A stretch of DNA of 64,000 nucleotides from a virus (lineage: Duplodnaviria; Heunggongvirae; Uroviricota; Caudoviricetes): positions 479-64,478 of the IMG/VR virus record IMGVR_UViG_3300034061_003277. One strand, given 5' to 3'. Positions 5,527-22,734 of this stretch are shown here, piece by piece; the stretch's first letter is position 1, and every line of letters begins with the position of its first letter. The position numbers and the translations under genes were made by a program. The notes beneath the pieces are model-generated. The model was not told where the DNA came from. It did no database searches and worked only from the letters and a program-made list of their open reading frames with translations.

Positions 5527-5919
5527 ATGGATTTGAAAAACTTTGGACAAAAACTAAAATTTGAGGAAAGTAATAAAAGCAAAGAGAAAAAAATAAAAGA
5601 ACTATTCATGAGTATTGTAGATACTTTAGAATATAAGTTCCATAGCTCAACAGCTTTATTTACTGAATTCAATATAGAAATCTTCCGATATGAAGAAGAT
5701 TACTATAAAATAATTGAGAATTTACTTTTATTACATTTTGGATTATGGAAAACTGAATTAATCCTTTGGTATGTATATGAAGGTAAAGACGAAAATGGTG
5801 TACCTAACAGTATAGATATTGAATTACCAACAGGTGAAACCCAAACAATGAAATTCTCTACGACTAGTAGTCTATGGAATTTTATGACAAAATTAGACAA
5901 ACAATTAAACAAACAATGA
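5527..5919 (+). CDS. hypothetical protein
   Basis: 130-aa ORF. Confidence 0.4.
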   Translation: MDLKNFGQKLKFEESNKSKEKKIKELFMSIVDTLEYKFHSSTALFTEFNIEIFRYEEDYYKIIENLLLLHFGLWKTELILWYVYEGKDENGVPNSIDIELPTGETQTMKFSTTSSLWNFMTKLDKQLNKQ

Positions 5920-6257: not shown

Positions 6258-6904
6258 TGCCTTTACCAAAACCATTAAGTAAAGAACAGATAATAGCAGC
6301 TATGGGTAAAACCAAGTCAAATAGAGCTGCTGCTAGATATCTTAATGTAAGTTATATACATTATAAGGGTTGGGCGAAGTTATATAAAGATGAAGAAGGA
6401 GGAATATCTTTATTTGAAAAACATAAAAACCAATCAGGAAAAGGCATTCCTAAATTTTTAAATAACGGTAAAAAAGATCCAGCCCTATTAGATGTGATTG
6501 AAGGGCGAATAGATCCTTCTCATTTTAATCCACAGAAAATAAAATACCGTTTATTAGAAGAAGGGTATATAAAAGAAGAATGTTCTAAATGTGGGTTCCA
6601 TGAGCGTAGAGTTATAGATTACAAAATGCCTATTTTACTCTATTTTAAAGATGGAAACAAACAACATTATAAATTAGATAATTTAGAAATGTTATGTTAT
6701 AATTGTTTCTTTTTATATTATGGAGATGTATTTACTGATAAGGATCTTCAACAGTTAGAAGATCATAAACCGCTAAATGAAACAAGTGAAGCAGTGAATA
6801 TGGAATTAGATGATTATCAAGTTCAAAGACTGAAAGAATTAGGATTATATGATTCTAATGAAAGTGAAAACGATGACCCATACTCGTTGGTTTCAAAACT
6901 TTAA
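6257..6904 (+). CDS. HNH (His-Me finger)-like endonuclease with N-terminal HTH
   Basis: N-terminal HTH-like 'NRAAARYLNVSYIHYKGW'; 'CSKCGF...DGNKQHYKLDNLEMLCYNC' HNH-like core. Confidence 0.45.
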   Translation: MPLPKPLSKEQIIAAMGKTKSNRAAARYLNVSYIHYKGWAKLYKDEEGGISLFEKHKNQSGKGIPKFLNNGKKDPALLDVIEGRIDPSHFNPQKIKYRLLEEGYIKEECSKCGFHERRVIDYKMPILLYFKDGNKQHYKLDNLEMLCYNCFFLYYGDVFTDKDLQQLEDHKPLNETSEAVNMELDDYQVQRLKELGLYDSNESENDDPYSLVSKL

Positions 6905-6918
6905 AAATATTTATAAAC

Positions 6919-7074
6919 ATGAAAAATAAAAATCATGATAAAATAACTAAAGATTACAATAAAGCTAAATCACAGCATTTAGAAAAATTGGCTACTAAAA
7001 TGTTAAAACAAGATGAAGTAGCTAATCAATTGAAATCTAAAGAAATTAATCCTGATTTTTTAAACCTATTTTAA
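6919..7074 (+). CDS. small ORF (51 aa) not in track
   Basis: ATG at 6919, lysine-rich, fills an intergenic gap. Confidence 0.25.
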   Translation: MKNKNHDKITKDYNKAKSQHLEKLATKMLKQDEVANQLKSKEINPDFLNLF

Positions 7075-7076
7075 TT

Positions 7077-7436
7077 ATGGCTACAGAATTTACCCTTAAT
7101 AATAGTGAGGAGTTCCAGAAGATGATAAATGATAAGGACTTCAGGATAGCCCAAGCAATTGTAACAACTATTTTAAACAACATAACTACTAAAAAGAAAC
7201 ATATTCATGTATTATCAGTTAGCTGTTTGGAAGAAAATGCTACATATGACATTACTTTAGAAAAAAAACACTTTGTTGATACATTAGAAGAAAATTTAAA
7301 GTATTACATTGAACATGAATTATATGAAGATTGTACTAAAATAGTACAAGCTATAAATAAGTTAAAAGAAACACCAACACCAACACCTAAAACCACACCT
7401 AAGAAAAATGGCAAAAGCAAAACAATCAGCGACTAG
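7077..7436 (+). CDS. hypothetical protein with TP-rich basic C-terminal tail
   Basis: C-terminus TPTPTPKTTPKKNGKSK. Confidence 0.5.
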   Translation: MATEFTLNNSEEFQKMINDKDFRIAQAIVTTILNNITTKKKHIHVLSVSCLEENATYDITLEKKHFVDTLEENLKYYIEHELYEDCTKIVQAINKLKETPTPTPKTTPKKNGKSKTISD

Positions 7437-7892
7437 AACATTTATCGCTAAACCAAGAAAAAAAAGACCAGGCGTACATAGTAAGAAAAAACAAAGTAAG
7501 AATAAGAATAGTAAAAACTATACTAAACCTTACAACAAACAAGGTAAATAAATAAATAAAAATAAAGTTATGAGTAAAAACAGTGCATTACAAAATTACG
7601 ATTGTCTAAAATCTTATATTCAAGTTTTAGAAAATAAACGTAAACGTAGTCCTAGACCCAACAAGAAAAAAGAACGCGATCTATTAAATTACCACCCTGC
7701 TCTAAAATATAATGAAGACAACATTTAGTTTGTTAGAATATATTCTTAAACTACCAGATGATTCTTTAATTACTTTAGTTAAAACAGATTGGGGAGGATT
7801 AGAAATGATTTGTGGTTTTTTATCTATTGAATTAAATATAGAAGAAAATAGCGAGAATTTAAATTAGGTGTATTTATAGCAAATACACCATA

Positions 7893-8135
7893 ATGAAACA
7901 CTTCCCGTTTTTATTTTTATCTATATGGTTAATGGGGTTTATGTATGTGTTTATATTATGGGTAGTATCTATAGATGTTATATCTGTATCTATACTGTTT
8001 GGGATATTAATGGGATTAATAGCTTTAGGAATGACTGTTGTCCAATTTGCATTAAGTAAACATTTGTTTTACTTACTAAGAGGATTTATCATTATGAGGA
8101 AAATTAAGACTAAAAAATCTAAAAATAGACCATAA
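7893..8135 (+). CDS. small membrane protein
   Basis: 80 aa, 2-3 hydrophobic helices, basic C-terminus. Confidence 0.45.
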   Translation: MKHFPFLFLSIWLMGFMYVFILWVVSIDVISVSILFGILMGLIALGMTVVQFALSKHLFYLLRGFIIMRKIKTKKSKNRP

Positions 8136-8141
8136 TAAATA

Positions 8142-8669
8142 ATGGAGGAGTATAGTCATTGGTTCCATTGGAGTCATTATTTTAGAGCTAATTACGAATG
8201 GTTACATAAACCTGAAAAGTTCTTATATGATATTGAACAACAATTGCCCTCATACATTACTCAGATAGTAAATATAGGATGCGCTTCAGGTAGAGATTTT
8301 ATACCTTTTAATGGTAAATATGATTTAATAGGCATTGATATAGCTCCTTATGATCAGATAAATTGGGTTGATGATTTTAAAAACCTAACTTATTATACAT
8401 GCTATATAAAAGACTTTAGTGGTTTAGATGTATTACAAGATTTATCAACATCATTCATCTATACTCAAAATACAATGATGTATGAAACTGAAGAAGGACA
8501 AAGAGATTTTTATGAAAGTATATTAGAACGAGGATGTAAGAATATGCTATTTCATGAACATGAAGGTTTTGATTATAATACTGAGGGATTTAAATTGGAC
8601 CCTAATGATTTTGAGATTACTCAATTTAGACCCCCAGTAAATGCTTACTTAAAATTAACACATTTATGA
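8142..8669 (+). CDS. possible class-I SAM-dependent methyltransferase-like protein
   Basis: 'IVNIGCASGRDF...LIGIDIAP' resembles SAM motif I/II; weak. Confidence 0.3.
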   Translation: MEEYSHWFHWSHYFRANYEWLHKPEKFLYDIEQQLPSYITQIVNIGCASGRDFIPFNGKYDLIGIDIAPYDQINWVDDFKNLTYYTCYIKDFSGLDVLQDLSTSFIYTQNTMMYETEEGQRDFYESILERGCKNMLFHEHEGFDYNTEGFKLDPNDFEITQFRPPVNAYLKLTHL

Positions 8670-8843
8670 CTAATGACGAATTGATTGAAGAGTTACTTTG
8701 GGAAGCTCACACTAAAGGTATAGGTAAAGACATGATTAACCTAGCAAATAAGTATATTACTGAAGATAAAATGAGAAAAAGTTTTGCATACCAAAAGGCA
8801 TATGAAGAACTTCAGGTAGAATTTTATTAAAGATTTTAAAAAA

Positions 8844-8890
8844 GTTTGGCTTTTAGATTTTTATATATTATCTTTATAGTATAAATTAAA
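8844..8890 (+). promoter_or_regulatory. class-I (host sigma-A-like) promoter: TTTG-N20-TAtcTTTa
   Basis: 'gTTTGgcttttagatttttatatatTAtcTTTatagtataa'; 44-nt identical copy at 16708. Confidence 0.6.
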
Positions 8891-8905
8891 ATTTAAATAA
8901 AGGTT

Positions 8906-9229
8906 ATGAATAAATCAATTACTCTTGAAAACAACCACGAGTTGCAATTAGTACCAGATACATGGGACAAAACAATTACTGTGTATTTATTTGATACAAT
9001 TAATGACACTCGAGTAACATTAACTACTTTTGAAGGTGGTAAATGGAGTTCTATATCTCAATCACATATTGACAAATTCTTTGAATTAGTTAAATCTCAT
9101 CCTAAAATTAGAGTCGCTTTAAAGAAAATATTTGGTGAATTAAGAGAAGAAGGTACACCTGATTTTGTTACTTCAATGAAGTGTTTGCGTCGTAGGATTA
9201 ATATTCAAATTAAAAAAATTCTTAAATAA
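8906..9229 (+). CDS. hypothetical protein (class-I promoter-driven)
   Basis: 107-aa ORF directly after a class-I promoter. Confidence 0.5.
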   Translation: MNKSITLENNHELQLVPDTWDKTITVYLFDTINDTRVTLTTFEGGKWSSISQSHIDKFFELVKSHPKIRVALKKIFGELREEGTPDFVTSMKCLRRRINIQIKKILK

Positions 9230-9707: not shown

Positions 9708-10039
9708 AAAAGTTATTTTTAATGTTACCACTTGTAGGATTAATGGCGTGTGAAGGATCAACTCCACAACCAATAATTATTCCTCATGTTGACACTATTA
9801 TAGTGAAACCAGACCCAATTATACCAACAGATACTACTAAGGCATGGCCTATTAAAGTTGTAACTGTAGAAAGAAATGTGGATAAAAGTATTAATATGAA
9901 GTGGGAAGTAGTAACTGAGAACGGAGTTATGTATTATACTAATCATAAACCACAAATTGGCGATATTGCTTTTTGTCTTGGAATGGATGAAGAGATTGTT
10001 GATTGTGAATGTAATAAACTAAAAACAAATAAACCATGA
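9704..10039 (+). CDS. lipoprotein
   Basis: Signal peptide plus lipobox MKKLFLMLPLVGLMAC. Confidence 0.55.
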   Translation: MKKLFLMLPLVGLMACEGSTPQPIIIPHVDTIIVKPDPIIPTDTTKAWPIKVVTVERNVDKSINMKWEVVTENGVMYYTNHKPQIGDIAFCLGMDEEIVDCECNKLKTNKP

Positions 10040-10422
10040 AAAAAATATTAGTTACACTACTAATATGTGTATGCTCACTAATAGCATTCTCACAACCTGT
10101 ATTTGCCAAATCAAACACAGTAGCAATCGGAATTAAAAACACAGTAGGAACATTTGACTGGGATGCACCTCAGGTCACAAGCGATATTCTAGTTAAAATA
10201 GATGCTGCTGAAATTAATGTTCATTCTAAAGTACACCAACAGTATCATCTCTACTTAGATGTAAATGAATTAAATGATGATGATACAGCATGTTGGATGG
10301 CATATGATAAAGATGGGGAGCGATGTAGGGTTTATCTACTTAGGAACGATGTTGGTGATTCATTTTTAATGATAGAATATAATGATATATCTTGGATTTA
10401 TAATTTAATAATGGTAAAATAA
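10036..10422 (+). CDS. secreted protein
   Basis: Signal peptide ...SLIAFSQPVFA (Bacteroidetes-type SQ cleavage context). Confidence 0.5.
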   Translation: MKKILVTLLICVCSLIAFSQPVFAKSNTVAIGIKNTVGTFDWDAPQVTSDILVKIDAAEINVHSKVHQQYHLYLDVNELNDDDTACWMAYDKDGERCRVYLLRNDVGDSFLMIEYNDISWIYNLIMVK

Positions 10423-10936: not shown

Positions 10937-11761
10937 ATGTTACTAAAAAACGGATCAAAAGGAGAAGAAGTTAAACAACTTCAAGCAAAATTAGGATTAA
11001 ACGCAGACGGTAATTTTGGTCCTATGACTGAAACTAAAGTCAAAGAATGGCAAGCAGCAAATGGATTAGCAGCTGACGGTATTGTAGGAGACGGTACATG
11101 GGGTAAAATGTTTGGAGCAGCAGCTCCAACCCCTGTTGCAACTGTAGCTATCCCGCCAAGTTCATTCAAACTAGATGCTTTAAAGGGACATATCCCTGAT
11201 GCTGTAATAGCCCAAATCCCAGATACAGCAGCTAAATTCAACATTACAAATCCATTACGTCTAGCTCATTTCTTAGCACAATGTGGACATGAATCAGGTG
11301 GATTCAAATTCATTAATGAGAATTTAAACTACTCAGCTGATGGTTTAAAGAAGATATTCGGAAAATACTTCCCAGGCGATCTAGCTGCTTCATATGCTCG
11401 CAACCCAGAAAAAATTGCTTCTCGTGTTTATGGAGCAAGAATGGGTAATGGAGATGAATCAACAGGTGAAGGATATAAATATCGTGGACGTGGTTATATC
11501 CAATTAACTGGTAAATCTAACTACACCAATTTTGCTAAATTTATAGGAGAAGATACAGTCGCCAACCCCGATCTAGTAGCAACCAAATACCCATTAGCAT
11601 CAGCAGCATTTTTCTTCGATTCAAATAAATTATGGTCAATATGTGATAAAGGAGCTGATGAAGCAACTGTCACAGCAGTCACTAAACGAGTAAACGGTGG
11701 TACAATTGGTTTACCTGATCGTATTAAGCATTTTAACGAGTACTATAACTTATTGAAATGA
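10937..11761 (+). CDS. endolysin: peptidoglycan-binding domain + GH19/lysozyme-like catalytic domain
   Basis: Two PG_binding_1-like repeats (LQAKLGLNADGNFGPMTETKVKEWQ; LAADGIVGDGTWGKM); GH19-type motif LAHFLAQCGHESGGF. Confidence 0.8.
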   Translation: MLLKNGSKGEEVKQLQAKLGLNADGNFGPMTETKVKEWQAANGLAADGIVGDGTWGKMFGAAAPTPVATVAIPPSSFKLDALKGHIPDAVIAQIPDTAAKFNITNPLRLAHFLAQCGHESGGFKFINENLNYSADGLKKIFGKYFPGDLAASYARNPEKIASRVYGARMGNGDESTGEGYKYRGRGYIQLTGKSNYTNFAKFIGEDTVANPDLVATKYPLASAAFFFDSNKLWSICDKGADEATVTAVTKRVNGGTIGLPDRIKHFNEYYNLLK

Positions 11762-12576
11762 TGGCTGAGGAGAAAAAATACAGAAATACATTAACTTCCC
11801 GATTAGTATACCTAAACCCAGATTTTACTCCTGAGGACTCAAGTAGTTTAGAATTAATACCTGTTAATAAAGATGGAGATGGAACTGTTGAGGTATCATT
11901 AACCGCCGCTAGTGGGAGTGCAGTAATAGACTCATCTGAGAATATATTATCACAAGATTTTAGAATTGGTGAGAATGGAATAATTGAAATTTCTTTTAAA
12001 CAAGGTTGGATTACAGATACTTTTAGAAAATTTATAAATAAATATAAAGGTTCTAGATGGCAAGTGCAATTTAAAGTTATAATTAATCTTAATAGTGGAA
12101 ATTTTCCTAAAAATACTTATAAAGATATAATATACTTTAATTTTATTGATATAGAATTAGGTTCTTTTGAACAATCAAATGAAGCAAATAATATTAGAAT
12201 CTTAACTGAATCAGAAATAAGTAAGGATATACTTCAAATAAAATCAAATTTTAAAACTGTAGAGGAGGATTATATTTTAGCTAAAAAGCAATACGAAGCC
12301 CAGTTAAAATCTAATGTTGATCTAGAAATTGATACAGTCAATCCCTACGAACCAAGGTCATTTAAAACTGTTATCACTCGTTTATTAGAATTTCAAGAAG
12401 GCACTATCAATCCATCTTTAGACTATACTAAGGTTGCAGGGTTGGATAGTGAGTATAAAAAACTAGAAGTCATAAATAAGCTAATTACCAACTTAACGAG
12501 AATGTATCCGTCTATCACTATTAAGGATGGTGAAGGCATCCCATACAACGGCAAAGAAGTGCAATTAGAAAAATAA
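11758..12576 (+). CDS. hypothetical protein
   Basis: 272-aa ORF coupled to the endolysin stop. Confidence 0.5.
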   Translation: MMAEEKKYRNTLTSRLVYLNPDFTPEDSSSLELIPVNKDGDGTVEVSLTAASGSAVIDSSENILSQDFRIGENGIIEISFKQGWITDTFRKFINKYKGSRWQVQFKVIINLNSGNFPKNTYKDIIYFNFIDIELGSFEQSNEANNIRILTESEISKDILQIKSNFKTVEEDYILAKKQYEAQLKSNVDLEIDTVNPYEPRSFKTVITRLLEFQEGTINPSLDYTKVAGLDSEYKKLEVINKLITNLTRMYPSITIKDGEGIPYNGKEVQLEK

Positions 12577-12593: not shown

Positions 12594-13673
12594 ATGGGTT
12601 ATTTAAAAAACATAGTCACTTATTTCTACAAAATATTATTCAGCTCAGAGATAAATGAAGCTGATAAATTTATTGATAAAGCTGCCATCATCTCTATAAC
12701 TGATGAGCGTGGTAAGATAATCTATGTTAATGATAAGTTTGAGAAGGTTTCTGGGTGGACATTAGATGAGGTTAGAGGTAAAGATCATTCTATAGTCAAT
12801 TCCGGGACGCAACCAGATGGCTATTGGGGTAAGATGTATGAGACTGTGTTGAAGGGTGAAGTGTGGAATGATATTGTATGTAATGTAACTAAAGAGGGTA
12901 AACATTATTGGGTAGACACTTATATTAGAGCCCGTTTTAATAAATGTGGAAAACTAAAAGGATTCTCATCTATTAGACAGGACGTCACTGCGCTTATGGA
13001 GCAGTCTGTTGAGTTAAATAGAAAGAATACATATCTAGAACACGCTGCTAAAATTCTTAGGCACGACATGCACTCAGGTATAAACACTTACATACCAAGA
13101 GGTATTAGTTCATTAGAAAGAAGACTCAAACCAGAAGATATTCAAAAGTTAAAAATAGAAGCTCCTCTTAAGATGATTAAAGAGGGGCTAACTCATGCTC
13201 AAAAAGTTTATAAAGGTGTTTATGAGTTTACCAATTTGGTTAAAAAAGATGTTGTGTTAGATAAAGAGTTATATGATTTAAAACAAATATTAAACTCATA
13301 TCTAGCATCAACTTCATATAAAAGTCAAGTAATAATCAAAGATTTATCTACTGTAGAAGTCAATGAAGCATTATTTTGTACAGCTGTAGATAACCTAATT
13401 CGCAATGGGTTAAAATACAACGACTCAGATACTAAAATAGTAACTATATTTATGGAGGATGATTCTACTCTTGCTATTCAAGATAATGGTAGAGGAATAA
13501 CTCAAGAAGATTTTAATTATTTATCTAGACCTTACACTCGTAAAGAAGGACAAAAAGAAGCAGGTACTGGTTTAGGTTTAAATATATGTGTTGCAATTTT
13601 AAAAGAGCATGGTTTTGATATTACATGTGAAAAAAATGAGGTTGGAACCAAAATGAAAATTAAAATAAAATGA
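12594..13673 (+). CDS. cytoplasmic sensor histidine kinase (PAS + HisKA_3-like H-box + HATPase_c)
   Basis: PAS-like N-terminus (ITDERGKIIYVNDKFEKVSGWTLDEVRGKDHSIV...HYWVDTYI); H-box-like LRHDMHSG; ATPase boxes NGLKYNDSD, DNGRGI, GTGLGLNIC. Confidence 0.7.
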   Translation: MGYLKNIVTYFYKILFSSEINEADKFIDKAAIISITDERGKIIYVNDKFEKVSGWTLDEVRGKDHSIVNSGTQPDGYWGKMYETVLKGEVWNDIVCNVTKEGKHYWVDTYIRARFNKCGKLKGFSSIRQDVTALMEQSVELNRKNTYLEHAAKILRHDMHSGINTYIPRGISSLERRLKPEDIQKLKIEAPLKMIKEGLTHAQKVYKGVYEFTNLVKKDVVLDKELYDLKQILNSYLASTSYKSQVIIKDLSTVEVNEALFCTAVDNLIRNGLKYNDSDTKIVTIFMEDDSTLAIQDNGRGITQEDFNYLSRPYTRKEGQKEAGTGLGLNICVAILKEHGFDITCEKNEVGTKMKIKIK

Positions 13674-14302
13674 GAACACTATTACTATTAAGTTTCTTAT
13701 TAATATCATCACTAGGATTTAGCCAAACTAAATACCCTATCCAAACTATATTCAGAGGTGACTCAGTTGTTATTCTAACTATTAAACAATCTTTTGGTAT
13801 TAATAAAGCAATTGAAACCCAAAAAAGAATTATCCGAGACCAGAATAAAAAAATACTCGCTCTAAATAAAACAATTGATAGTTTAAATAGGATAAATAAT
13901 AGAGTTAATACTGTTATTGATAGTATACAATATATTGCAGACACAACATATAAGTGGGCTGACGAATTTAATATGGTTATCAGAGAACGAGCTATAGGTC
14001 CATGTTTACTTTATACCATACCTCCTTATAACAGTGTATTCTTTTTAGATTTAAGTCGTTATAGAATGTATAGTACAGAATACGGTGAAAAAATTGAATT
14101 AGAATTAATGTCAGATAAACAATATGCCGAGTTTAAAAGACTACAAGATTTATATTTTGATAGATACTACCCTACTTTAGATTATTATAAAGAGATTGGG
14201 TTTAAAGATTTTAATACTGAGATTGAATTATACGAGAAGGCAATTTGGAAGACTAAAAATATAATGAAGTTAATGATAAAACAAGAAGAAAAGAAAAAAT
14301 GA
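13670..14302 (+). CDS. secreted protein encoded between the two kinases
   Basis: Signal peptide MRTLLLLSFLLISSLGFSQ; start overlaps kinase stop. Confidence 0.5.
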   Translation: MRTLLLLSFLLISSLGFSQTKYPIQTIFRGDSVVILTIKQSFGINKAIETQKRIIRDQNKKILALNKTIDSLNRINNRVNTVIDSIQYIADTTYKWADEFNMVIRERAIGPCLLYTIPPYNSVFFLDLSRYRMYSTEYGEKIELELMSDKQYAEFKRLQDLYFDRYYPTLDYYKEIGFKDFNTEIELYEKAIWKTKNIMKLMIKQEEKKK

Positions 14303-15606
14303 AAAAAATAATATCATTACTTATAGTCTTACTTGTATCTATAAATTTATACTCCCAAGAGATAAATTATAAAGACACTCTAGTAGATAACATAGAAACA
14401 ACTTGGATTGATAGCGATACAGCGACATTGGCCGCTATGGGTATTCAAGAAATTGTTACTACTTGGATTGAACCAGAACCAGAGCCAGAACCTGAACCTG
14501 TTGACATGACACAGTTATCAGAAACTGATTTAGTCAACATTGCTCAGGATGTACAATTCCTATCAGAATTGCCTAAGTCATATACTGATTTACCTAAAGA
14601 GGATTTAAAGAATGTTTTAGTTCAAATTGATAATAAACTTAATAAATTAACGGCTGAGCGAGATTCATTATTAGCACAAGCAACTAGAAATGATGAATTA
14701 ATTAAATCAAAAGAAAATACAATTAACGCCTTAGGAAAAGAAAAGAACATCATTGGTTTAACTTTAGAAACTGGTGATTTAATAGTTGAGAAAACAGATT
14801 TAGAAAAGCAAAGAGAAACATTAAAAAAATATCTCTATTGGGCTGTTGGTATAGTAATATTATTTAGTTTAATACTTGCTGTTGTATTACAAAGAAAGAA
14901 AATACAAGTACAGGACGTAGAAATTGAAGAACAACTTAATGACATATCTAAAAAGAATAGTTACTTAGAACACGCTGCGAGAATTATCCGCCACGACATG
15001 CACTCAGGTATAAACACATACATGCCTAGAGGTATTAGTTCACTTGAAAAACGATTAACACCTGAAGACATTCAAAAGTTAAAAATAGAAGGTGCTTTAA
15101 AAATGGTTAAAGAAGGTTTAAACCATACACAGCGAGTATATAAAAGTGTTTATGAATTTACTAACTTAGTGAAATCAGATGTTGTATTGAATAAAACCAA
15201 AGTTAATCTAAAAGATTTGCTTCAAAACTACATTACCCCAAACTCATATAGCTCACAGGTTGAAATTAGTGACTTAGAAGAATTAGAAGTAAATGAAATT
15301 TTATTTTGCAATGCAGTTGAAAATTTAATTAAAAATGGATTATCATATAATGATAGCCAAGAAAAGAAAGTCAAAATATATATTGACAACGACAGTTTAG
15401 TAATCGAAGATAATGGTCGAGGATTTACACAAAAACAATTTGATAAACATTTAACAAAATACTCAAAGAAAACAAATGTTACAGGTGATGAAAATGGACT
15501 CGGTTTGAATATATGCGTTGCTATATTAGAGGAGCATGGTTTTAAATTAAGTTGTGAAGGAAACAATGTAGGAACTAAAATGAAAATTAAAATTAAAAAT
15601 GACTGA
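14299..15606 (+). CDS. membrane-anchored sensor histidine kinase (paralog of 12594-13673 core)
   Basis: Signal peptide, TTWIDSD/TTWIEPE repeat, EPEPEPEPEP linker, coiled coil, TM (WAVGIVILFSLILAVVL). Kinase core ~85% nt-identical over H-box (ttagaacacgctgc...cacgacatgcactcaggtataaaca); DNGRGF, GLGLNICVAILEEHGF. Confidence 0.7.
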   Translation: MKKIISLLIVLLVSINLYSQEINYKDTLVDNIETTWIDSDTATLAAMGIQEIVTTWIEPEPEPEPEPVDMTQLSETDLVNIAQDVQFLSELPKSYTDLPKEDLKNVLVQIDNKLNKLTAERDSLLAQATRNDELIKSKENTINALGKEKNIIGLTLETGDLIVEKTDLEKQRETLKKYLYWAVGIVILFSLILAVVLQRKKIQVQDVEIEEQLNDISKKNSYLEHAARIIRHDMHSGINTYMPRGISSLEKRLTPEDIQKLKIEGALKMVKEGLNHTQRVYKSVYEFTNLVKSDVVLNKTKVNLKDLLQNYITPNSYSSQVEISDLEELEVNEILFCNAVENLIKNGLSYNDSQEKKVKIYIDNDSLVIEDNGRGFTQKQFDKHLTKYSKKTNVTGDENGLGLNICVAILEEHGFKLSCEGNNVGTKMKIKIKND

Positions 15607-16051
15607 CTTGAACATGATTGAATCTATTTTATTAGTAGATGATGAGGATTTATTCCACTTAGTATTTGAAGATGCTTGTAGCCTATTAGACATAACTTTG
15701 TCTTTGGAAGCTATAAACAGTGCTGATGAAGCCGAAAAACGATTTAAAAAATGGTTTGATACCGGTGATATATCTGATAAACCAAAATGTGTATTTGTTG
15801 ATTTAAATATCATAGGATCATCGTTTGATGGTATTGAATTAATTCGACGAATTAACTTTATGTATGGTAACCATGTAGTAGTTGGAATTATATCATCAAG
15901 TAATGAAGCAGAAGAACAAGCCAAAGCACTTCAAGCCGGGGCCCAATTTTGGATCATTAAATCAGATGATATTGAACCACGATTGGAAGAATTTAGAAAA
16001 GACTACCAGGCGTATGAAGCTAGAACAGCCCCATTTAAAATATATAGATAA
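15599..16051 (+). CDS. stand-alone response-regulator receiver (REC, CheY-like)
   Basis: LLVDDED acidic pocket, phospho-acceptor Asp in VFVDLNI, conserved S/T (ISSS) and Lys (WIIKS); no output domain. Confidence 0.75.
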   Translation: MTDLNMIESILLVDDEDLFHLVFEDACSLLDITLSLEAINSADEAEKRFKKWFDTGDISDKPKCVFVDLNIIGSSFDGIELIRRINFMYGNHVVVGIISSSNEAEEQAKALQAGAQFWIIKSDDIEPRLEEFRKDYQAYEARTAPFKIYR

Positions 16052-16701
16052 TGATAGTAGGAAAGGTTACAAAAGAGCAGTTATTAAATGTATACAAGAC
16101 AAAGAACATATGTCTTGAGGGTAACATTCTGAAATTAATTGACCCTGAGGATGACACTGAATTCACAGAGTATTTGAAGATATGTGCTGATAGAGATAAA
16201 GATAGTAGACGTAAGCGTTTGGAAATAACTAAACGTATCCAAACTCAGAACAATGAACTTACTGAAGCCCAACAACAAAATGAAAAATTGATGTTGGAGC
16301 TACAGTCTTCTTTAGAAGAAATGGAAACTTCTAAAGCACAGATCGAATGCCAAAATAAAGAATTGCTACAGTGGAAAGAGGAGAATGAAAAAATGGATGA
16401 AGATCTACGTGAAGCATTAAGAATTGCTGAGAATGCTAAATTAGCAGCTGAGGGTGATTTAGATCTAATGCAGAAAAAAACTCAATTTGAATTAATAAAT
16501 AGCATTGTAAAAGTAGCATTATATATTATTTTAGGTGTAGGTATTGTAACCACAGGGATGTTTGTATTTGCAATGGTAATGGGCTACGACACAACAATTC
16601 TTAGTTCAGCATGGTCTAATATGTTTGGTATATTATTAACTAACTCATTCAGCATAGTAGGTACTATAATGGGAGTTAAATATGCTTCTGAAAAAAAGTA
16701 A
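16051..16701 (+). CDS. coiled-coil protein with C-terminal transmembrane helices
   Basis: Long Q/E/K-rich coiled coil then two hydrophobic helices; start overlaps REC stop. Confidence 0.5.
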   Translation: MIVGKVTKEQLLNVYKTKNICLEGNILKLIDPEDDTEFTEYLKICADRDKDSRRKRLEITKRIQTQNNELTEAQQQNEKLMLELQSSLEEMETSKAQIECQNKELLQWKEENEKMDEDLREALRIAENAKLAAEGDLDLMQKKTQFELINSIVKVALYIILGVGIVTTGMFVFAMVMGYDTTILSSAWSNMFGILLTNSFSIVGTIMGVKYASEKK

Positions 16702-16763: not shown

Positions 16764-17300
16764 ATGAAAACACAACAACAAATCACAAAAAATCAATTAT
16801 TACAAATACTATCTGATCTAGATGGTAAACAAGCTATGTTTGTTTCACTAACAGCTGAAGTAGATGCTCGTTTAAAAAAGACAGATAACAAATATGCTAA
16901 AGACACAGTCACTAAATTAAACAAATACTCAGGTTTAATTAATTATAATTACGCTAATAGTGTAAATAATCAACGACTAAGAGAAGATAAAGTAGCTGAT
17001 TTTAAAGCTAAGTCCACTTATGCTAATAAAATTAATGATATGTATAATGGTTGTTTAGCAACACATAATACAACAGGTCAAGTTTATTTAGTATTTAAGG
17101 AACAAAGTTCACAAAAACCAACTTATAAAATTAATGGTAAGGAAGTTGATATTGATACTGAAAACTATTTGAAACAATTTAGAGTTGAGAAAAAAGTTTA
17201 TCAATCACAAAATGTTGATAAGCAAATTGAACATAGAAATGTTAAGTTAGAGAATATTAGAACTTTAAACATTAATAATATTGAATATATTATAATTTAA
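16764..17300 (+). CDS. hypothetical protein (class-I promoter-driven)
   Basis: 178-aa ORF. Confidence 0.5.
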   Translation: MKTQQQITKNQLLQILSDLDGKQAMFVSLTAEVDARLKKTDNKYAKDTVTKLNKYSGLINYNYANSVNNQRLREDKVADFKAKSTYANKINDMYNGCLATHNTTGQVYLVFKEQSSQKPTYKINGKEVDIDTENYLKQFRVEKKVYQSQNVDKQIEHRNVKLENIRTLNINNIEYIII

Positions 17301-17304: not shown

Positions 17305-17390
17305 GGCCGGGTGGTGAAACAGGTAGACACGCAGGACTTAAAATCCTGTTGCCCAAAAGAGCAGTGTGGGTTCGATTCCCACCCCGGCTA
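17305..17390 (+). tRNA. tRNA-Leu (anticodon TAA), type II
   Basis: Manual fold: acceptor GGCCGGG/CCCGGCT, D-arm GTG-aaacaggtaga-CAC, anticodon arm CAGGA-cuUAAaa-TCCTG, long variable arm TGC-ccaaaaga-GCA, T-arm GTGGG-TTCGATT-CCCAC. Confidence 0.85.
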
Positions 17391-17503
17391 CTAAAGTACA
17401 TGCTACGCTACCCATAAGAACAGCGTCCCAGAGTATGGCTTTTGCTAAAGAGGATAAAATGCGTAGTAGCCTCAGGAGTCTGCAGCTCCACTACGCTCCA
17501 TTA

Positions 17504-17577
17504 GCGCCCTTAGCTCATTCGGTTAGAGCAACTGACTCATAATCAGTAGGTGCCTGGTTCGATCCCAGGAGGGCGCA
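17504..17577 (+). tRNA. tRNA-Met (anticodon CAT; elongator-Met or Ile2 type)
   Basis: Acceptor GCGCCCT/AGGGCGC, D-arm GCTC/GAGC, anticodon arm ACTGA-cuCAUaa-TCAGT, T-arm CCTGG-TTCGATC-CCAGG. Confidence 0.85.
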
Positions 17578-17598
17578 CTAAAAAGTTTTTTAAATATA

Positions 17599-18029: not shown

Positions 18030-18503
18030 ATGAATATATTTTACATCCATGAAGATCCAGTTATCGCCGCTCAAATGTTAGCTGATGATCACATTCGCAA
18101 AATGCAAATTGAATCAGCTCAAATGTGTTGTACAGCGCATTGGGAGACAGGAAATGAAGCACCATATAAACGTGCTCATAAGAATCATCCATCAACAATA
18201 TGGGTTAGACAATCAGTACAACACTATAAATGGTTAGTGAAACATGGCCTAGAGATATGCAAAGAGTTTGAATTACGTTATGGTAAACGTCATGCTACAC
18301 AAAATGTGCTTGAATGGTGTGAAAAAAATATACCTAACATATCAAACAATACATTTAAAGAACCACCATTATGCATGCCAGATGAATTTAAAGTAGGTGG
18401 TACAATTGAATCATATCGTAATTTTTATGTTAATGATAAGATTAAAATTAAAGGATTAGATTGGAAAAAAATACCAAATAAGAAACCAAACTGGGTAATA
18501 TGA
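18030..18503 (+). CDS. conserved hypothetical protein
   Basis: 157-aa ORF after a class-II promoter. Confidence 0.5.
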   Translation: MNIFYIHEDPVIAAQMLADDHIRKMQIESAQMCCTAHWETGNEAPYKRAHKNHPSTIWVRQSVQHYKWLVKHGLEICKEFELRYGKRHATQNVLEWCEKNIPNISNNTFKEPPLCMPDEFKVGGTIESYRNFYVNDKIKIKGLDWKKIPNKKPNWVI

Positions 18504-18703
18504 CACCAAAAGAAAAAGCAGAACAATTAGTAAACAAAATGTTTAACTGGATTCAAGGCGGAAGCGTAATAGAATATGAAACAGCTAAAGAATGTGCCTT
18601 GATAGCAGTAGATGAGATATTAAAAGTAGCGTCATTTTACAATGATTCACAAGCCGAAGTAACTTATTGGCAAGAAGTTAAACAAGAAATAGAAAAATTA
18701 TGA
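18500..18703 (+). CDS. hypothetical protein
   Basis: 67-aa coupled ORF. Confidence 0.4.
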   Translation: MTPKEKAEQLVNKMFNWIQGGSVIEYETAKECALIAVDEILKVASFYNDSQAEVTYWQEVKQEIEKL

Positions 18704-19431
18704 GCAAGACAATTATATTAGGAGACACACACGGTCGTAACATTTGGAAAGAGATCGTGTTTCAAGAAAAAGCAGATAGAGTTATTTTTATCGGAGACTA
18801 CTTTGATAGCTTTGATATAGGCCCTGCTGAGCAAATGCATAATTTTCAAGAGATTATTGACTTTAAAGAGAAGGGTGAGTGTGAAGTTATTTTATTAATT
18901 GGTAACCATGACTTTCATTACTACCCAGGCGGCGAGACATACTCAGGATATAAAGCAGGCGCAGCCCCAGCTATTAGACAGATGTTACAAGAAAATGATC
19001 ACCATATGCAAATGTGTTATCAACTTGATAATATCTTATTCACACATGCTGGTATTGGTCATGACTGGTTAGTGTATCAAAACCAATATGAACCATTTAC
19101 AGATCAAGATACTGTAACCAACATAGCTGATTTTGTAAACGCAATTTGGAAATATCAACCTAATCGTTTTATGTTTTATGGAATTGATCCATACGGTGAT
19201 AGTAAAACACAAACACCGATTTGGATACGCCCACAATCATTAATAGCGGGTAATCGAGGTACATTCTTGAAAACAGATTATATCCAAGTAGTAGGTCATA
19301 CTCATGTCGCTAAGATTGATATTGAGGGTAAATCGACAGGCGGTAGATATTATTTCATCGATACATTTGACACCTCAGGTCAATTTTTAGTTTATGAAAA
19401 TAAGGAGTTCAGATTAGGAGAATATCCTTAA
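18700..19431 (+). CDS. calcineurin-like metallophosphoesterase (Ser/Thr-phosphatase / polynucleotide 3'-phosphatase fold)
   Basis: Motifs GDTHG, GDYFD, GNHD, THAG, GHTH. Confidence 0.8.
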   Translation: MSKTIILGDTHGRNIWKEIVFQEKADRVIFIGDYFDSFDIGPAEQMHNFQEIIDFKEKGECEVILLIGNHDFHYYPGGETYSGYKAGAAPAIRQMLQENDHHMQMCYQLDNILFTHAGIGHDWLVYQNQYEPFTDQDTVTNIADFVNAIWKYQPNRFMFYGIDPYGDSKTQTPIWIRPQSLIAGNRGTFLKTDYIQVVGHTHVAKIDIEGKSTGGRYYFIDTFDTSGQFLVYENKEFRLGEYP

Positions 19432-19488
19432 CTTTTTATCCTAGGCTTTTAAATTAAATTTATTATCTTTATAGTATAAGAAAAAATT

Positions 19489-19608
19489 ATGAAAAATAAA
19501 ATAAATGGTAACGCGGTTGATCTAATAGTAGGAATAGCTGCTGTATTTGGAGTAATGACAATATTATTCTCTGCTGTTGGGATGATTATTAAATTAACAT
19601 TTGGTTAA
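19489..19608 (+). CDS. 39-aa hydrophobic peptide (not in track)
   Basis: ATG 9 nt after a class-II promoter; MKNKINGNAVDLIVGIAAVFGVMTILFSAVGMIIKLTFG. Confidence 0.3.
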   Translation: MKNKINGNAVDLIVGIAAVFGVMTILFSAVGMIIKLTFG

Positions 19609-20215
19609 TATGGTTGATAATTTTGAGAAAATACGCTACAGGTTGAAATTTGAGGATGATTATTTTTATTTCATCCAGATTATACAGCGGAGTAAAGAAA
19701 ATCCTGAATTAGGTTCAAACAATAGAATTATTCGTTCTTATAATATTGATTCATTAGAAAAGTTTGATAAAAATAAGGATGAAATAACAATACTGTGTGA
19801 TACATTTAATGCTCGAGCTTATATTCATTTGAATAGAAGAAAGTGGAGTAAGGTTGCACTTGAATGCTTAAGACATAATGCCGAATTAATTGCTAATAAC
19901 CAACACAGTGGTATTAAGTCAAGTTTTGAGACTGTAATTGGACGTAACAATGGTGAATCAAGTGAAACTAAGACATGGATCATTGATATTGATATGAATG
20001 ATTTAGAGGTTGTAAATAAAATTGAACGTATCATTAATAGTGTAGAACCTATAGATAGAACTGTAACTAAATTAATGTATGTTCTTCCTACCAAGAATGG
20101 GTTTCATATGATCACTAAACCATTCAATAGAGCTGAATTTACTAAGTATATGCAGTTGCAAGGTGATACACCTGATATTCATACTGATAACCCAACAATA
20201 TTATACGCAATATGA
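19601..20215 (+). CDS. hypothetical protein (track start is TTG; first ATG at 19610)
   Basis: 204-aa ORF between the phosphoesterase and kinase genes. Confidence 0.5.
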   Translation: MVNMVDNFEKIRYRLKFEDDYFYFIQIIQRSKENPELGSNNRIIRSYNIDSLEKFDKNKDEITILCDTFNARAYIHLNRRKWSKVALECLRHNAELIANNQHSGIKSSFETVIGRNNGESSETKTWIIDIDMNDLEVVNKIERIINSVEPIDRTVTKLMYVLPTKNGFHMITKPFNRAEFTKYMQLQGDTPDIHTDNPTILYAI

Positions 20216-20610
20216 AAACATTAATATTATTAAGAGGATTACCTGGATCGGGTAAATCAACATTAGCTAAAATGTTAGTCGGGGATAAAGATTACCGACA
20301 CAAAGAGGCTGATATGTTTTTCGTCGACGGTGAGGGTAATTACAAGTTTGAACCATCAAAAATCAAAGATGCTCATGCTTGGTGTCAAGAGGAGGTTGAT
20401 TTCCTAATGAGATATGAGCATTCGCCAGTGGTAGTGTCAAACACATTCACACAAGAGTGGGAGATGGATGCTTATTTTGAATTAGCTGAGAAGTATGATT
20501 ACCAAACATCTTGCCTTATAGTAGAAAATAGACACGGTGGAGTAAATGAACATGGTGTACCCGCAGACAAATTAGAACAAATGAAAAATCGTTTTGAAAT
20601 AAAATTATAA
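20212..20610 (+). CDS. P-loop polynucleotide-kinase-like protein (AAA_33/PNK kinase-domain type)
   Basis: Walker A LLRGLPGSGKSTLAKM at N-terminus; ~130 aa. Confidence 0.6.
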   Translation: MKTLILLRGLPGSGKSTLAKMLVGDKDYRHKEADMFFVDGEGNYKFEPSKIKDAHAWCQEEVDFLMRYEHSPVVVSNTFTQEWEMDAYFELAEKYDYQTSCLIVENRHGGVNEHGVPADKLEQMKNRFEIKL

Positions 20611-20624
20611 AAATAACAAACAAA

Positions 20625-20873
20625 ATGAAAATTACAGTAATCCACAACCCAGATGAAGAAAATTGGGGACAATATGCAGGAGTTGAAACAATTTTAACTA
20701 CTAATGAAGGCACAGAATCAGTCAACTTTGCTGGAGGTGAACCTGAAGACATGAGTATTGCTAGAGATTTGAGTGATGCCTGGAGCATTAAAGAATTATT
20801 AGTTAGAGCATATAATGCAGGTAAGAATGGCGAAACATTAGAAATCGAAGAAATAACAGAAGACGACGAATAA
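20625..20873 (+). CDS. small acidic protein
   Basis: 82 aa, D/E-rich. Confidence 0.4.
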   Translation: MKITVIHNPDEENWGQYAGVETILTTNEGTESVNFAGGEPEDMSIARDLSDAWSIKELLVRAYNAGKNGETLEIEEITEDDE

Positions 20874-22037
20874 ATGGAAAACAATAATTCAGTGTGCTAT
20901 GTAGCACGTATAAACGAAATCAACCCAATCCCAGGAGCAGATAATATCGAACAAGGTGTTATCGGAGGATGGAATTGTATTATCAAGAAAGGAGAATACA
21001 AAGTAGATGACTTAGTTGTAGTAGCAACCACAGACGCAGTTATTCCTGTAGAGCTATCAGATGCAATGAACGTAACCAATTACTTACGTAAGGGTCAACG
21101 TGTGCGTACTGTTAAGTTAAGAGGTGTTTACAGTGAGTGTTTGATTATACCTTTAAGATACGCTCGTCAATCTGCTAAATACACTAAATTGGAGTGGAAT
21201 GAAGGTAAGGATGTAATGGAATTGTTAGGTATCTTCAAGTATGAACCACCAGTACGCCAAGTACAAGTGGCAGGGGGTCGTAAGATTAAATATAAAGACA
21301 ACCCTAATTTCCAGGTTTATTATAAATTCCCCAACATAAAAAATGTGAATGGAATGTTTAATGAAGAAGATTATGTACAAATTACTCGTAAGATACATGG
21401 TACAAATGCTCGTTATGGTATTGTTAAGAAACATAAGTTATCATTTTGGGATAAGTGTAAAAAATTCTTACGATTAGCTGATGAGTGGATTGAGTATGAA
21501 TATGTTTATGGTTCACATAACGTTGAGAAAGGTTCTGATACACAAGGTTTCTACTCAACTGATGTTTGGAGAGAGGTAGCTGATAAGTATCAAATCAAAG
21601 ATAAGTTGTGGGCGTTTGTTAAGAATCACACACCAACTGAAGTTGGAACTGGAGTAATAGTATATGGTGAGATATACGGACCTGGTATTCAAAAGAACTA
21701 TGACTACGGATTGAAGGAGTTAGAGTTTGCTGGTTTTGATGTTGTATGGAATGGTAAATATTTTTGTGGTGAATTAACTCATCTTACAATGATTGGTAAG
21801 CATAATGACTTTATCGACGGTGTTGATTTGCCTCACGTACCTATTTTATATGTTGGACTTTGGTCTCAAGAGATTCAAGATAAGTTCACATTCAACAACT
21901 TTATTGAAGGAACTAAAGTACCACATGAAGGTATTGTAATCAAACACACAAGTGGACAAAGAGAAAAAGTAGCTAAAGTAATTAACCCAGACTATCTCAT
22001 CTATGGAGAGAAACATGATGTAGGAGATTCACACTAA
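20874..22037 (+). CDS. ATP-dependent RNA ligase (KxHGxN nucleotidyltransferase in C-terminal half, DraRnl/Rnl5-like arrangement)
   Basis: Motif I RKIHGTNARYG at ~residue 175; motif IV HEGIVIKH; motif V KVAKVINPDY; ~170-aa N-terminal extra domain. Confidence 0.6.
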   Translation: MENNNSVCYVARINEINPIPGADNIEQGVIGGWNCIIKKGEYKVDDLVVVATTDAVIPVELSDAMNVTNYLRKGQRVRTVKLRGVYSECLIIPLRYARQSAKYTKLEWNEGKDVMELLGIFKYEPPVRQVQVAGGRKIKYKDNPNFQVYYKFPNIKNVNGMFNEEDYVQITRKIHGTNARYGIVKKHKLSFWDKCKKFLRLADEWIEYEYVYGSHNVEKGSDTQGFYSTDVWREVADKYQIKDKLWAFVKNHTPTEVGTGVIVYGEIYGPGIQKNYDYGLKELEFAGFDVVWNGKYFCGELTHLTMIGKHNDFIDGVDLPHVPILYVGLWSQEIQDKFTFNNFIEGTKVPHEGIVIKHTSGQREKVAKVINPDYLIYGEKHDVGDSH

Positions 22038-22047
22038 GACTTTTTAT

Positions 22048-22083
22048 CCTAGGCTTTTAAATAAGATTTATTATCTTTATAGT
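22048..22083 (+). promoter_or_regulatory. class-II phage promoter: cCTAG-N19-TAtcTTTatagtat
   Basis: cctaggcttttaaataagatttattatctttatagtatg, immediately before ATG 22084. Confidence 0.6.
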
Positions 22084-22734
22084 ATGAAAATAGAATTAAA
22101 ACCCCACCAAGGATTATGGTTTACAAGTGATACTCACTACAACCATGCTAACATATGTCGAGCGACTACAAGATGGACTGATGCAGATGCTGTGACTCGT
22201 GACTTTAGTTCATTAGAGAAAATGAATGAGACATTAGTATCTAACATTAACAAATATGTTCAACAAGATGATATCCTGATTCATTTAGGTGATTGGTCAT
22301 TTGGTGGTTTTGAGAGTATTAAAGAGTTTAGAGATAGGATTGTATGCCAAAACATACATTTAGTACTCGGAAACCATGATCATCATATTTCAAACAACAG
22401 AGACGATATCCAATCTATATTCAGTTCAGTAAATCAATACTTAGATTTAGATGTTAGATGGTGGGTTGCTGGTAAGATAAAAGAACACGCTCGTTTCATC
22501 TGTATGCATTATCCTATAGCGAGTTGGAATGGAATGAATGATGGGGCAGTTCACTTACATGGACACGTTCATTTACCTAAACATTTAAGAATGGCAGCTG
22601 GCAAGGCAATGGATGTAGGAGTAGATGGAAATGATTTGGAGCCAATTGAAATGGATGATATATTAATTAAAATGGTATCTAGACCAATCGATAAATTAAC
22701 ATTACCAAAAGATCATCACGTTAAAAGAATATAA
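22084..22734 (+). CDS. calcineurin-like metallophosphoesterase (second copy)
   Basis: SDTHYNH, LGDWSFGG, GNHDHH, HLHGHVH. Confidence 0.75.
   Translation: MKIELKPHQGLWFTSDTHYNHANICRATTRWTDADAVTRDFSSLEKMNETLVSNINKYVQQDDILIHLGDWSFGGFESIKEFRDRIVCQNIHLVLGNHDHHISNNRDDIQSIFSSVNQYLDLDVRWWVAGKIKEHARFICMHYPIASWNGMNDGAVHLHGHVHLPKHLRMAAGKAMDVGVDGNDLEPIEMDDILIKMVSRPIDKLTLPKDHHVKRI

Follow-up and report, generated by a model that had tools for sequence, protein, structure and literature searches.

The 64,000-nucleotide (nt) stretch of DNA analyzed here, referred to below as the window (positions 479 to 64,478 of IMG/VR record IMGVR_UViG_3300034061_003277), carries a phage-encoded two-component signaling system. 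Its genes belong to a run of five plus-strand open reading frames (ORFs) at 12594-16701, in which successive ORFs overlap by 4, 4, 8, and 1 nt. A preliminary description of this DNA, made without database searches, had listed five coupled plus-strand genes, and their positions and order are borne out by the ORF coordinates and overlaps. HK1 (12594-13673) encodes a soluble PAS histidine kinase (Pfam PAS_9, E 6e-9; HATPase_c, E 3e-15), and SP210 (13670-14302) encodes a probable secreted or periplasmic protein with the leader MRTLLLLSFLLISSLGFSQ and no Pfam family. HK2 (14299-15606) is a membrane kinase paralog (HATPase_c, E 2e-12), REC (15599-16051) is a single-domain receiver of 150 amino acids (Response_reg, 34.0 bits against a cutoff of 30.2), and CCTM (16051-16701) is a coiled-coil protein with two transmembrane (TM) segments and no Pfam family. 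NCBIfam and PHROG results agree with Pfam for all five genes. TM segments were taken from a simple hydropathy scan, and signal peptides (in SP210 and HK2) were assigned by visual inspection.

The Pfam searches that had been suggested in the preliminary description found PAS and HATPase_c in HK1, HATPase_c in HK2, and Response_reg in REC. That description would have been overturned by missing HATPase_c or Response_reg matches or by loss of the conserved His and Asp in homologs; the matches are present and the residues are kept. We are highly confident that the phage encodes a genuine kinase-receiver pair. Comparison of related loci identifies the conserved entity as three genes, HK-REC-CCTM, which we refer to as the cassette.

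HK1 kinase core and PAS input

HK1 has a PAS domain at approximately residues 30 to 133 (nt 12681-12992) and a CA domain at residues 261 to 358 (nt 13374-13667). Its H box, YLEHAAKILRHDMHSGIN, contains His157 (nt 13062-13064), with His160 as an alternative acceptor. His157, Asp158, and His160 are invariant in 71 of 71 homologs, and the H-box consensus across these 71 kinases is YLEHAxKIxRHDMHSGIN. The core RHDMHS fits the pattern H-[E/D]-x-x-[T/N/S] with His157 as the acceptor, and from its sequence this residue is the most likely site of phosphorylation. The N, G1, F, and G2 boxes of the CA domain (DNLIRNGLKYND, DNGRG, F..S.PY.R, and G.GLGL) are likewise kept across the 71 homologs. The best kinase matches, to ArsS, EnvZ, CpxA, RstB, PhoR, and HK853, are all to HisKA-class enzymes, and alignment of the HK1-family profile with the HisKA-class kinases HK853, QseC, EnvZ, and CpxA is limited to the part that begins at DHp helix 2 and ends with the CA domain. 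The preliminary reading of 12594-13673 as a kinase with a PAS-like sensor and HATPase_c boxes agrees with Pfam. Its label of the H box as HisKA_3/NarX-like was dropped, as neither Pfam nor NCBIfam gives a HisKA_3 match and the profile aligns with HisKA-class kinases; the H box is HisKA-like.

A typical relative of HK1 is about 585 to 590 amino acids long and carries an additional PAS or GAF domain as well as two TM helices at its N terminus. Since most relatives are built in this way, the window's HK1 is a shortened, soluble version of a kinase that is usually anchored in the membrane.

The closest solved structures to the PAS domain of HK1 are MmoS PAS-A (3ewk, E 3e-28), Aer (8dik, E 1e-18), and NifL (2gj3, E 3e-9). 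Characteristic residues of the flavin pocket are His53, Asn85, and Arg115 in Aer, corresponding to H132, N164, and R195 in MmoS (PMC9668731). The equivalents in HK1 are H65, N97, and R128, which are kept in 70, 67, and 66 of the 71 homologs, respectively. Because the PAS domain is nearest to MmoS, Aer, and NifL and the pocket His, Asn, and Arg are conserved, a flavin-based redox or energy signal is the best-supported candidate for the input to HK1.

REC, a stand-alone receiver

The receiver domain spans residues 10 to 122 of the 150-residue REC, and Pfam finds no second domain. The active site comprises the acidic pair Asp14/Asp15, the phosphoacceptor Asp68 (nt 15800-15802), Ser99, Trp118, and Lys121, all conserved across 63 homologs. 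Alignment with CheY yields counterparts of D57, T87, Y106, and K109; the N-terminal register of that alignment is unreliable, and the acidic pair was taken from the Pfam alignment and from that with 3ilh, a stand-alone regulator and the nearest solved relative. Homologs start at the equivalent of Met6 (nt 15614). The CheY-like receiver with all phosphoacceptor residues and no output domain that was described previously is thus upheld by Pfam, by 3ilh, and by the 63 homologs.

REC has relatives in only 136 of 1.84 billion representative sequences, and every close relative is a stand-alone protein of about 140 to 150 amino acids. It is the most conserved gene of the cassette, with 65 to 93% identity across viral loci. 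Because REC has no DNA-binding domain, its sequence suggests an output that is nontranscriptional and exerted through protein contact.

CCTM, the putative output protein

CCTM begins with an N-terminal domain and coiled coil (residues 1 to 110; nt 16051-16380) that are conserved, continues into a variable coiled-coil stalk, and ends in a conserved TM hairpin (residues 146 to 209; nt 16486-16677) with the motif ILLTNxFSIxGTIxGxKY. The hydropathy scan places the two C-terminal TM segments at residues 146 to 179 and 191 to 209, in accord with the coiled-coil membrane protein previously proposed at 16051-16701. An AlphaFold2 (AF2) model (pLDDT 81) has a short N-terminal helical element, a single helix from residue 36 to residue 177 that runs into TM1, a tight turn, and TM2 at residues 182 to 214. 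Conservation is concentrated in the N-terminal ~70 residues and in the hairpin. The stalk varies and includes an indel of exactly 7 residues, as a true coiled coil would be expected to show. TM2 and the loop, in contrast to the stalk, are nearly invariant, including their polar residues, which argues for a functional membrane hairpin rather than a passive anchor.

About 5,600 homologous clusters of CCTM exist, and none belongs to a Pfam family. Structure and profile searches of the PDB and BFVD returned only CCTM's own family and coiled-coil noise. The names given to CCTM in source records (FeoB, FlhF, and RuvC-like) were rejected as coiled-coil artifacts.

A possible partner for the N-terminal domain of CCTM is suggested by a bacterial locus, L084. 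This metagenome-assembled genome (MAG) contig (CANIVF010000058.1) is a genuine Bacteroidetes chromosomal contig with genes for T9SS-sorted proteins, CreD, HD, and HAD proteins. At positions 5709-9090 it encodes a PAS kinase (50% identity), a REC (65% identity), and then a third protein whose first ~110 residues are homologous to the N-terminal domain and coiled coil of CCTM (hhalign 99%, E 5e-18; BLASTP E 9e-17) and which continues into HisKA and HATPase_c domains. The same input module therefore drives a kinase in the bacterium and a membrane hairpin in the phages, in both cases directly after a REC-only gene. Because the L084 kinase carries this domain after the same HK-REC pair, we think it probable that phospho-REC acts on the N-terminal domain of CCTM. 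L084 also suggests, by one example, a REC-to-kinase cascade in Bacteroidota made up of a PAS kinase, a REC-only protein, and a kinase with an input domain. A second chromosomal locus, L087, has the HK-REC pair alone. These two loci are truly chromosomal; most of the MAG matches are misbinned viral contigs, and the idea that all MAG matches represent hosts was abandoned.

Distribution of the three-gene cassette

At least 589 IMG/VR contigs, whose viral status is as assigned by IMG/VR itself, encode a relative of the kinase, and the best 80 were retrieved for comparison of loci. The loci are phylogenetically related, and counts among them are not counts of independent events. The order PAS kinase, REC, CCTM was found in 75 of 81 loci; four of the remaining six are cut by contig ends and two are the rhodopsin variant described below. 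REC and CCTM are always adjacent where both are present. Related cassettes occur on contigs of 29 to 67% GC, one of them beside a virion structural protein.

The conserved unit is therefore HK-REC-CCTM and not the five-gene run that had been proposed as the module: the core is present in 75 of 81 loci, HK2 in about 18 of 81, and SP210 in 14 of 81. The survey of related phages that the preliminary description had called for accordingly found the core to be widespread in IMG/VR, whereas the five-gene unit as such is not conserved. Neither the size of the family nor the neighborhood of lysis genes reported below had been recognized, although at least 589 contigs and recurrent hydrolase neighbors are involved.

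The earlier statement that two-component systems are essentially cellular was too strong, given that proteins of the two-component type already have PHROG families (phrog_857, phrog_10912, and phrog_731) and that phage phiCDHM1 has an AgrC kinase (PMC3901668). A search of the literature found no description of the HK-REC-CCTM cassette. A review of jumbo phages describes only a different domain, "cRec," and a study of freshwater phages, which we believe to be the depositor of a close relative, never mentions kinases.

In the two variant loci, L059 (IMGVR_UViG_3300018424_000645) and L062 (IMGVR_UViG_3300040751_004890), the PAS kinase is followed with a stop/start overlap by a 208-amino-acid microbial rhodopsin (5990-6616 and 1083-1706, respectively; Pfam Bac_rhodopsin, E 4e-15). 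Helix C of the protein contains RYTDWFLTVPLL, and the retinal lysine lies in DVIAKVGG. The positions of D85, T89, and D96 of bacteriorhodopsin are, as we take them from our own count, D, T, and Q; a carboxylate proton donor is thus missing, as it is in sensory rhodopsins. The 8 to 10 kb downstream contain neither REC nor CCTM. The pairing of a phage kinase with a rhodopsin may constitute a light or energy sensor.

HK2 and SP210, an add-on in some lineages

HK2 begins with a hydrophobic leader; its periplasmic region, which contains TTWIDSD/TTWIEPEPEPEPEP repeats as well as a coiled coil, leads to a single TM segment (residues 175 to 202; nt 14821-14904), which is followed by the DHp domain (His232; nt 14992-14994) and the CA domain. 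The leader, judged by eye, and the TM helix both match what had been described before. The kinase cores of HK1 and HK2 are 64% identical in amino acid sequence over 231 residues. Their nucleotide identity is 72% overall and 82% around the H box, as measured in two 60-nt bins (13019-13138 versus 14949-15068), which is close to the ~85% previously given for the sequence near 13031 and 14961.

HK2 had been called a recent duplicate of HK1. The two are indeed paralogous; a recent duplication, however, is contradicted by the tree of kinase cores, in which the HK2 cores of nine phage lineages form one separate, old clade that mirrors the HK1 clade. The sensor region of HK2 is only 27 to 44% identical in most other HK2-bearing loci, and 77% identical in one (L002). 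SP210 has only 154 homologs among 5.8 billion clusters, of which GenBank contains a single one, UFOVP117_177 of an uncultured Caudovirales phage; the AF2 model of SP210 is of low confidence (pLDDT 59). HK2 and SP210 are an old add-on limited to some lineages, and it is plausible that two kinases feed one REC in the lineage of the window.

Cell wall hydrolases and other neighbors of the cassette

The tightly packed gene run begins upstream of HK1. An endolysin with PG_binding_1 and GH19 domains (10937-11761, plus strand; Pfam PG_binding_1, E 2e-13; Glyco_hydro_19, E 5e-9; phrog_181, E 4e-68) overlaps by 4 nt a plus-strand orphan ORF of 272 amino acids (11758-12576), and a gap of 17 nt separates the latter from HK1. 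The orphan protein has no TM segment, matches nothing in Pfam, PHROG, or PADLOC, and is restricted, among the 81 loci, to the window's own contig. CCTM is the only nonenzyme TM protein within ~5 kb of the endolysin.

Wall hydrolases recur beside the cassette in other phages. Unbiased clustering of ORFs across 89 loci identified cell wall hydrolases as the sole recurrent neighbors. Three types are represented: the GH19 endolysin, a phage lysozyme of family GH24 (Pfam E 1e-41), and a domain that aligns with the second half of the endolysin phrog_33083. In 34 of 81 loci, a homolog of the GH19 endolysin is encoded no more than 10 kb from the cassette. A nonredundant set was defined from 57 REC clusters at 95% identity, 47 of which have at least 2 kb of flanking sequence on both sides. 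A hydrolase of one of the three types is found within 1 kb of the cassette in 24 of these 47 loci, and among the 30 nonredundant loci that hold any such hydrolase, 28 have one within 1 kb. Further hydrolase-adjacent cassettes appeared in a scan of metagenome contigs. The placement varies: in many loci a hydrolase gene directly follows CCTM, in others one precedes the cassette on either strand, and some loci have hydrolases on both flanks. Because three unrelated hydrolase families occur in differing arrangements, a single inherited accident is unlikely.

A second kind of envelope-active enzyme is found inside the operon itself. A patatin-like phospholipase (positions 11029-12021 of locus L014, also in L010 to L013 and L027; Pfam E 4e-21, with GGGxRG, GTSTG, and DGG motifs) is encoded between HK and REC, overlapping both neighbors and translationally coupled, in two lineages. 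In light of the adjacency of hydrolases, the patatin gene in the operon, and the position of CCTM as the sole nonenzyme TM protein near the endolysin, it is possible, and we suggest tentatively, that the output of the system concerns lysis or disruption of the envelope. Rather than forming the pore, CCTM may regulate lysis.

Several other genes were seen near cassettes. A YceI-like periplasmic protein (Pfam E 1e-44) is encoded at positions 11052-11594 of L037 and in L047 and L050, and also upstream of the kinase in L010 to L014, L026, L051, and L052; the gene either separates HK from REC or lies immediately upstream. Members of the YceI family bind lipids of the polyisoprenoid or quinone type, a property that may accord with a respiratory-chain theme. 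A full-length DnaK/Hsp70 homolog, recognized by eye, lies beside the cassette in 12 loci, including L010 (11687-13558), mostly just downstream of CCTM; in L015 it is upstream of the kinase on the opposite strand. In the window, three genes upstream of the endolysin, a 128-amino-acid protein (10036-10422) has a hydrophobic, Cys-containing leader, MKKILVTLLICVCSLIAFSQ, and a weak match to DUF7777. The protein may be a spanin-like accessory to lysis, either secreted or a lipoprotein.

PADLOC models of antiphage defense gave zero matches for six proteins of the run. Scans for sigma-70 promoters and terminators gave counts below shuffled expectation; Bacteroidota promoters are not covered by such a scan.

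The window and its likely host

The window encodes the GH19 endolysin, a baseplate wedge protein, RNA and DNA ligases, and three tRNAs, with nearly uniform strand use. Over its full length, the baseplate protein shares 45% identity with that of the Flavobacterium phage immuto, a 160-kb myophage, and it is 44% identical to the counterpart in Microcystis phage Mel-JY01. These genes, the strand use, and the relationship to immuto establish the window as phage DNA. The DNA ligase has its top match in an uncultured huge phage, and large cultured phages, Caulobacter phage Cr30 among them, come next. Relatives are found on IMG/VR contigs. The same sequence is also present on a 165-kb JGI contig and on a 128-kb NCBI metagenome contig. 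The source is a large (~165 kb) uncultured myophage that is a distant relative of Flavobacterium myophages. Its GC content of ~30%, the "SQ" at the end of leader peptides, and the kinship with a Flavobacterium phage suggest that the host is probably a member of the Bacteroidota. A host origin of the DNA would have undone the preliminary description; phage genes and phage relatives were found instead.

ARAGORN identified tRNA-Leu(TAA) at 17305-17391, tRNA-Met(CAT) at 17504-17578, and tRNA-Val(TAC) at 29378-29448. The first two (17305-17578, plus strand) lie shortly downstream of the gene run, with a further ORF (16764-17300) between them and CCTM. A repair-like cluster at 18030-22734 encodes Pyr_excise (denV-like), two metallophosphoesterases, an AAA_33 kinase-like protein, and the RNA ligase, and an ATP-dependent DNA ligase lies beyond it at 25973-27073. 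A family 2 glycosyltransferase (4130-5314) and a zf-dskA_traR protein (5874-6257) are annotated on the matching JGI contig. GC skew is approximately zero at 44 to 46 kb and negative from ~54 kb (~53000-64000), while long plus-strand ORFs of the baseplate region continue.

A proposed mechanism and its alternatives

We put forward, as an explanation whose chances fall a little short of even, that the cassette is a phage phosphorelay leading from the redox state of the host to a membrane effector and probably affecting lysis. The PAS domain of the kinase, being of the Aer/MmoS/NifL flavin type, would read the redox or respiratory state of the infected cell. The kinase would autophosphorylate on the invariant His of the H box, most likely His157, and the phosphate would pass to Asp68 of REC. 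Phospho-REC would then bind the conserved N-terminal domain of CCTM, and the signal would run along the continuous coiled-coil helix into the two-helix membrane hairpin. The hairpin would alter the cytoplasmic membrane, most likely by acting as or regulating a holin-type lysis trigger, and the timing of the burst would thereby track the energy state of the host. In the lineage of the window, HK2, with its periplasmic coiled-coil sensor, and SP210 would add an extracytoplasmic input into the same REC. Binding of flavin adenine dinucleotide (FAD), phosphotransfer, the contact between REC and CCTM, and the lysis output are what we infer from sequence. The complete chain, in which a phage flavin energy sensor and phosphorelay gate a new membrane effector posttranslationally and so time lysis or another membrane event to host respiration, is doubtful when all of its links are taken together. 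The new phage decision circuit envisaged in the preliminary description is reasonable but unproven.

A number of observations weigh against this proposal. Wall hydrolases are not recognizable near the cassette in 23 of the 47 nonredundant loci, and ten of the nearest neighbors in those loci include no other type of endolysin; they are unrelated proteins, namely, PrsW, ankyrin, lectin-like, and RmlD-like proteins and unknowns. Regions of lysis genes are known insertion hot spots for accessory genes, so that adjacency alone is weak evidence. CCTM has no match to a known holin family in Pfam, PHROG, PDB, or BFVD, and small ORFs with two TM segments in several loci could be the real holin. The L084 fusion is a single example, and the scan of metagenome contigs gave no second one, only five more phage cassettes. 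With respect to the kinase, Pfam HisKA gives no match to the DHp domain, a gap-free offset from HK853 picks His160 and not His157, and the position of Aer Thr18 is Ala, Ser, or Thr in the HK1 family. Searches for near-identical DNA and for related proteins found no relative of HK1, REC, or CCTM among 50,697 deposited phage genomes, HK1 giving weak PAS or ATPase matches only and REC and CCTM giving none. The cassette is carried by no cultured phage. The assignment to a Bacteroidota host comes from indirect signs.

An alternative that we regard as rather unlikely is a takeover of host signaling, in which the phage HK and REC would phosphorylate host regulators or drain phosphate from host kinases, reprogramming envelope, motility, or stress responses during infection, with CCTM as a mere tether. 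Cross talk is conceivable, given cellular counterparts in Bacteroidetes chromosomes with 48 to 50% identity for HK and 58 to 65% for REC; CheY-type REC-only proteins are generally known to be able to serve as phosphate sinks, and about half of the loci lie away from lysis genes. However, REC keeps 58 to 93% identity across contigs that range from 29 to 67% GC, which fits a self-contained circuit better than it fits many host partners. Moreover, CCTM is always kept beside REC, and the conservation of its hairpin exceeds what a simple anchor would need.

The presence of three nonhomologous hydrolase families directly beside the cassette, on either side and either strand, makes one inherited insertion unlikely, and with the patatin phospholipase inside the operon it speaks against the view that the cassette is an accessory passenger, a mobile moron that came to lie near lysis genes by chance and has a role unrelated to lysis, for example, in the management of membrane energy. 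This view draws on the highly variable flanking genes, the half of loci that have no hydrolase neighbor, the replacement of REC and CCTM by a microbial rhodopsin after the kinase in L059 and L062, and the recurrence of YceI-like and DnaK genes nearby. On balance we judge it unlikely.

By analogy with T4 lysis inhibition, the system could instead report envelope events such as superinfection or damage and delay or speed lysis or block entry. Most of the homologous kinases are anchored in the membrane by two N-terminal TM helices, but the loop between those helices is only a few residues long, leaving little to sense outside the membrane, and the universally conserved sensor is the cytoplasmic flavin-type PAS domain. 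The lineage of the window does add a secreted protein and a partner kinase that has a periplasmic domain, both fast evolving, and wall hydrolases adjoin the cassette; HK2 and SP210 are missing from most lineages, however, and we consider this explanation improbable.

Last, it is extremely unlikely, and already contradicted, that the window is bacterial or prophage DNA with an ordinary host two-component system: related loci do occur in MAG records of several phyla, and L084 and L087 are truly chromosomal, but the phage genes, near-uniform strand use, baseplate similarity to immuto, and recovery of the same sequence from two sources described above all oppose it, full-cassette MAG loci carry virion proteins or have genes in common with IMG/VR contigs, and the membrane-hairpin CCTM is absent from both chromosomal loci.

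The proposed relay to a membrane effector matters in part for its reach. A circuit of kinase, receiver, and effector is kept by hundreds to thousands of environmental phages whose hosts are of very different GC content, and such wide retention implies strong selection for sensing something within the infected cell. Two uncharacterized protein families are defined, a distinct stand-alone receiver and the CCTM protein with its input domain and membrane hairpin, and a bacterial REC-to-kinase relay that uses the same input domain is also indicated. If the proposal is true, this would be the first self-contained two-component circuit dedicated to a decision in the phage life cycle, with an output module derived from a REC-regulated bacterial kinase whose catalytic end was exchanged for a membrane hairpin. 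Even if the link to lysis should fail, a self-contained viral two-component system would alter the view of phage signaling genes as stray genes derived from hosts. The proteins are small and can be synthesized, which makes the system directly testable.

Comparison with known systems

Control of lysis timing is, to our knowledge, understood in few model phages, and we know of none in which His-Asp phosphotransfer has been shown to take part. The LytSR two-component system of Firmicutes, which monitors membrane energetics and governs the holin-like Cid/Lrg proteins, follows the same logic as is proposed for HK-REC-CCTM. There is no homology between the two. LytS has a 5TM-Lyt sensor, LytR has a LytTR DNA-binding domain, and control is transcriptional and cellular; the cassette, by contrast, has a PAS sensor, a REC-only regulator, control that would be posttranslational, and viral genes. 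In T4 lysis inhibition, RI and RIII act on the holin T, and superinfection is sensed in the periplasm. That system, like our proposal, is phage encoded and provides signal-responsive timing of lysis through contacts of membrane proteins, but it operates without a kinase or phosphotransfer and has no sequence similarity to the cassette.

At the level of the receiver, CheY, which acts on FliM, and DivK have no output domain, as is the case for REC, and REC has a full active site that includes the aromatic switch position, Trp118. DivK of Caulobacter binds the kinase-like DivL. Its action on a kinase-type partner resembles the arrangement in L084, where the gene after REC encodes a kinase with a dedicated N-terminal input domain. 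The REC family is nonetheless distinct in sequence, with only the 136 relatives noted above, and its putative target in phages is a coiled-coil membrane hairpin and not a motor switch or a kinase. The PAS domain of HK1 is like those of Aer, MmoS, and NifL in sequence and in the His, Asn, and Arg of the flavin pocket, and MmoS is also the sensor of a two-component system, as HK1 appears to be. Residues R57, H58, and D60 of Aer are lost in HK1, and a MmoS-like "VNSG" is retained. HK1 differs from all three in being phage encoded and in having a REC-only partner in place of a transcription factor or a chemotaxis array.

Among phages, phiCDHM1 carries the agr genes AgrB, AgrD, and AgrC, and its histidine kinase is thought to let the phage join in signaling (PMC3901668). 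In that phage there is "no associated response regulator," and the agr genes look recently acquired from a host (PMC3901668). Here, in contrast, the kinase, the receiver, and a putative dedicated output are all phage encoded, and they are conserved in phages of great diversity. Each part is of a kind already known, namely, a HisKA-class kinase, a PAS domain of the flavin type, and a CheY-like receiver; what appears to be new is a complete, self-contained circuit that is maintained by phages and has a proposed nontranscriptional membrane output of a new family.

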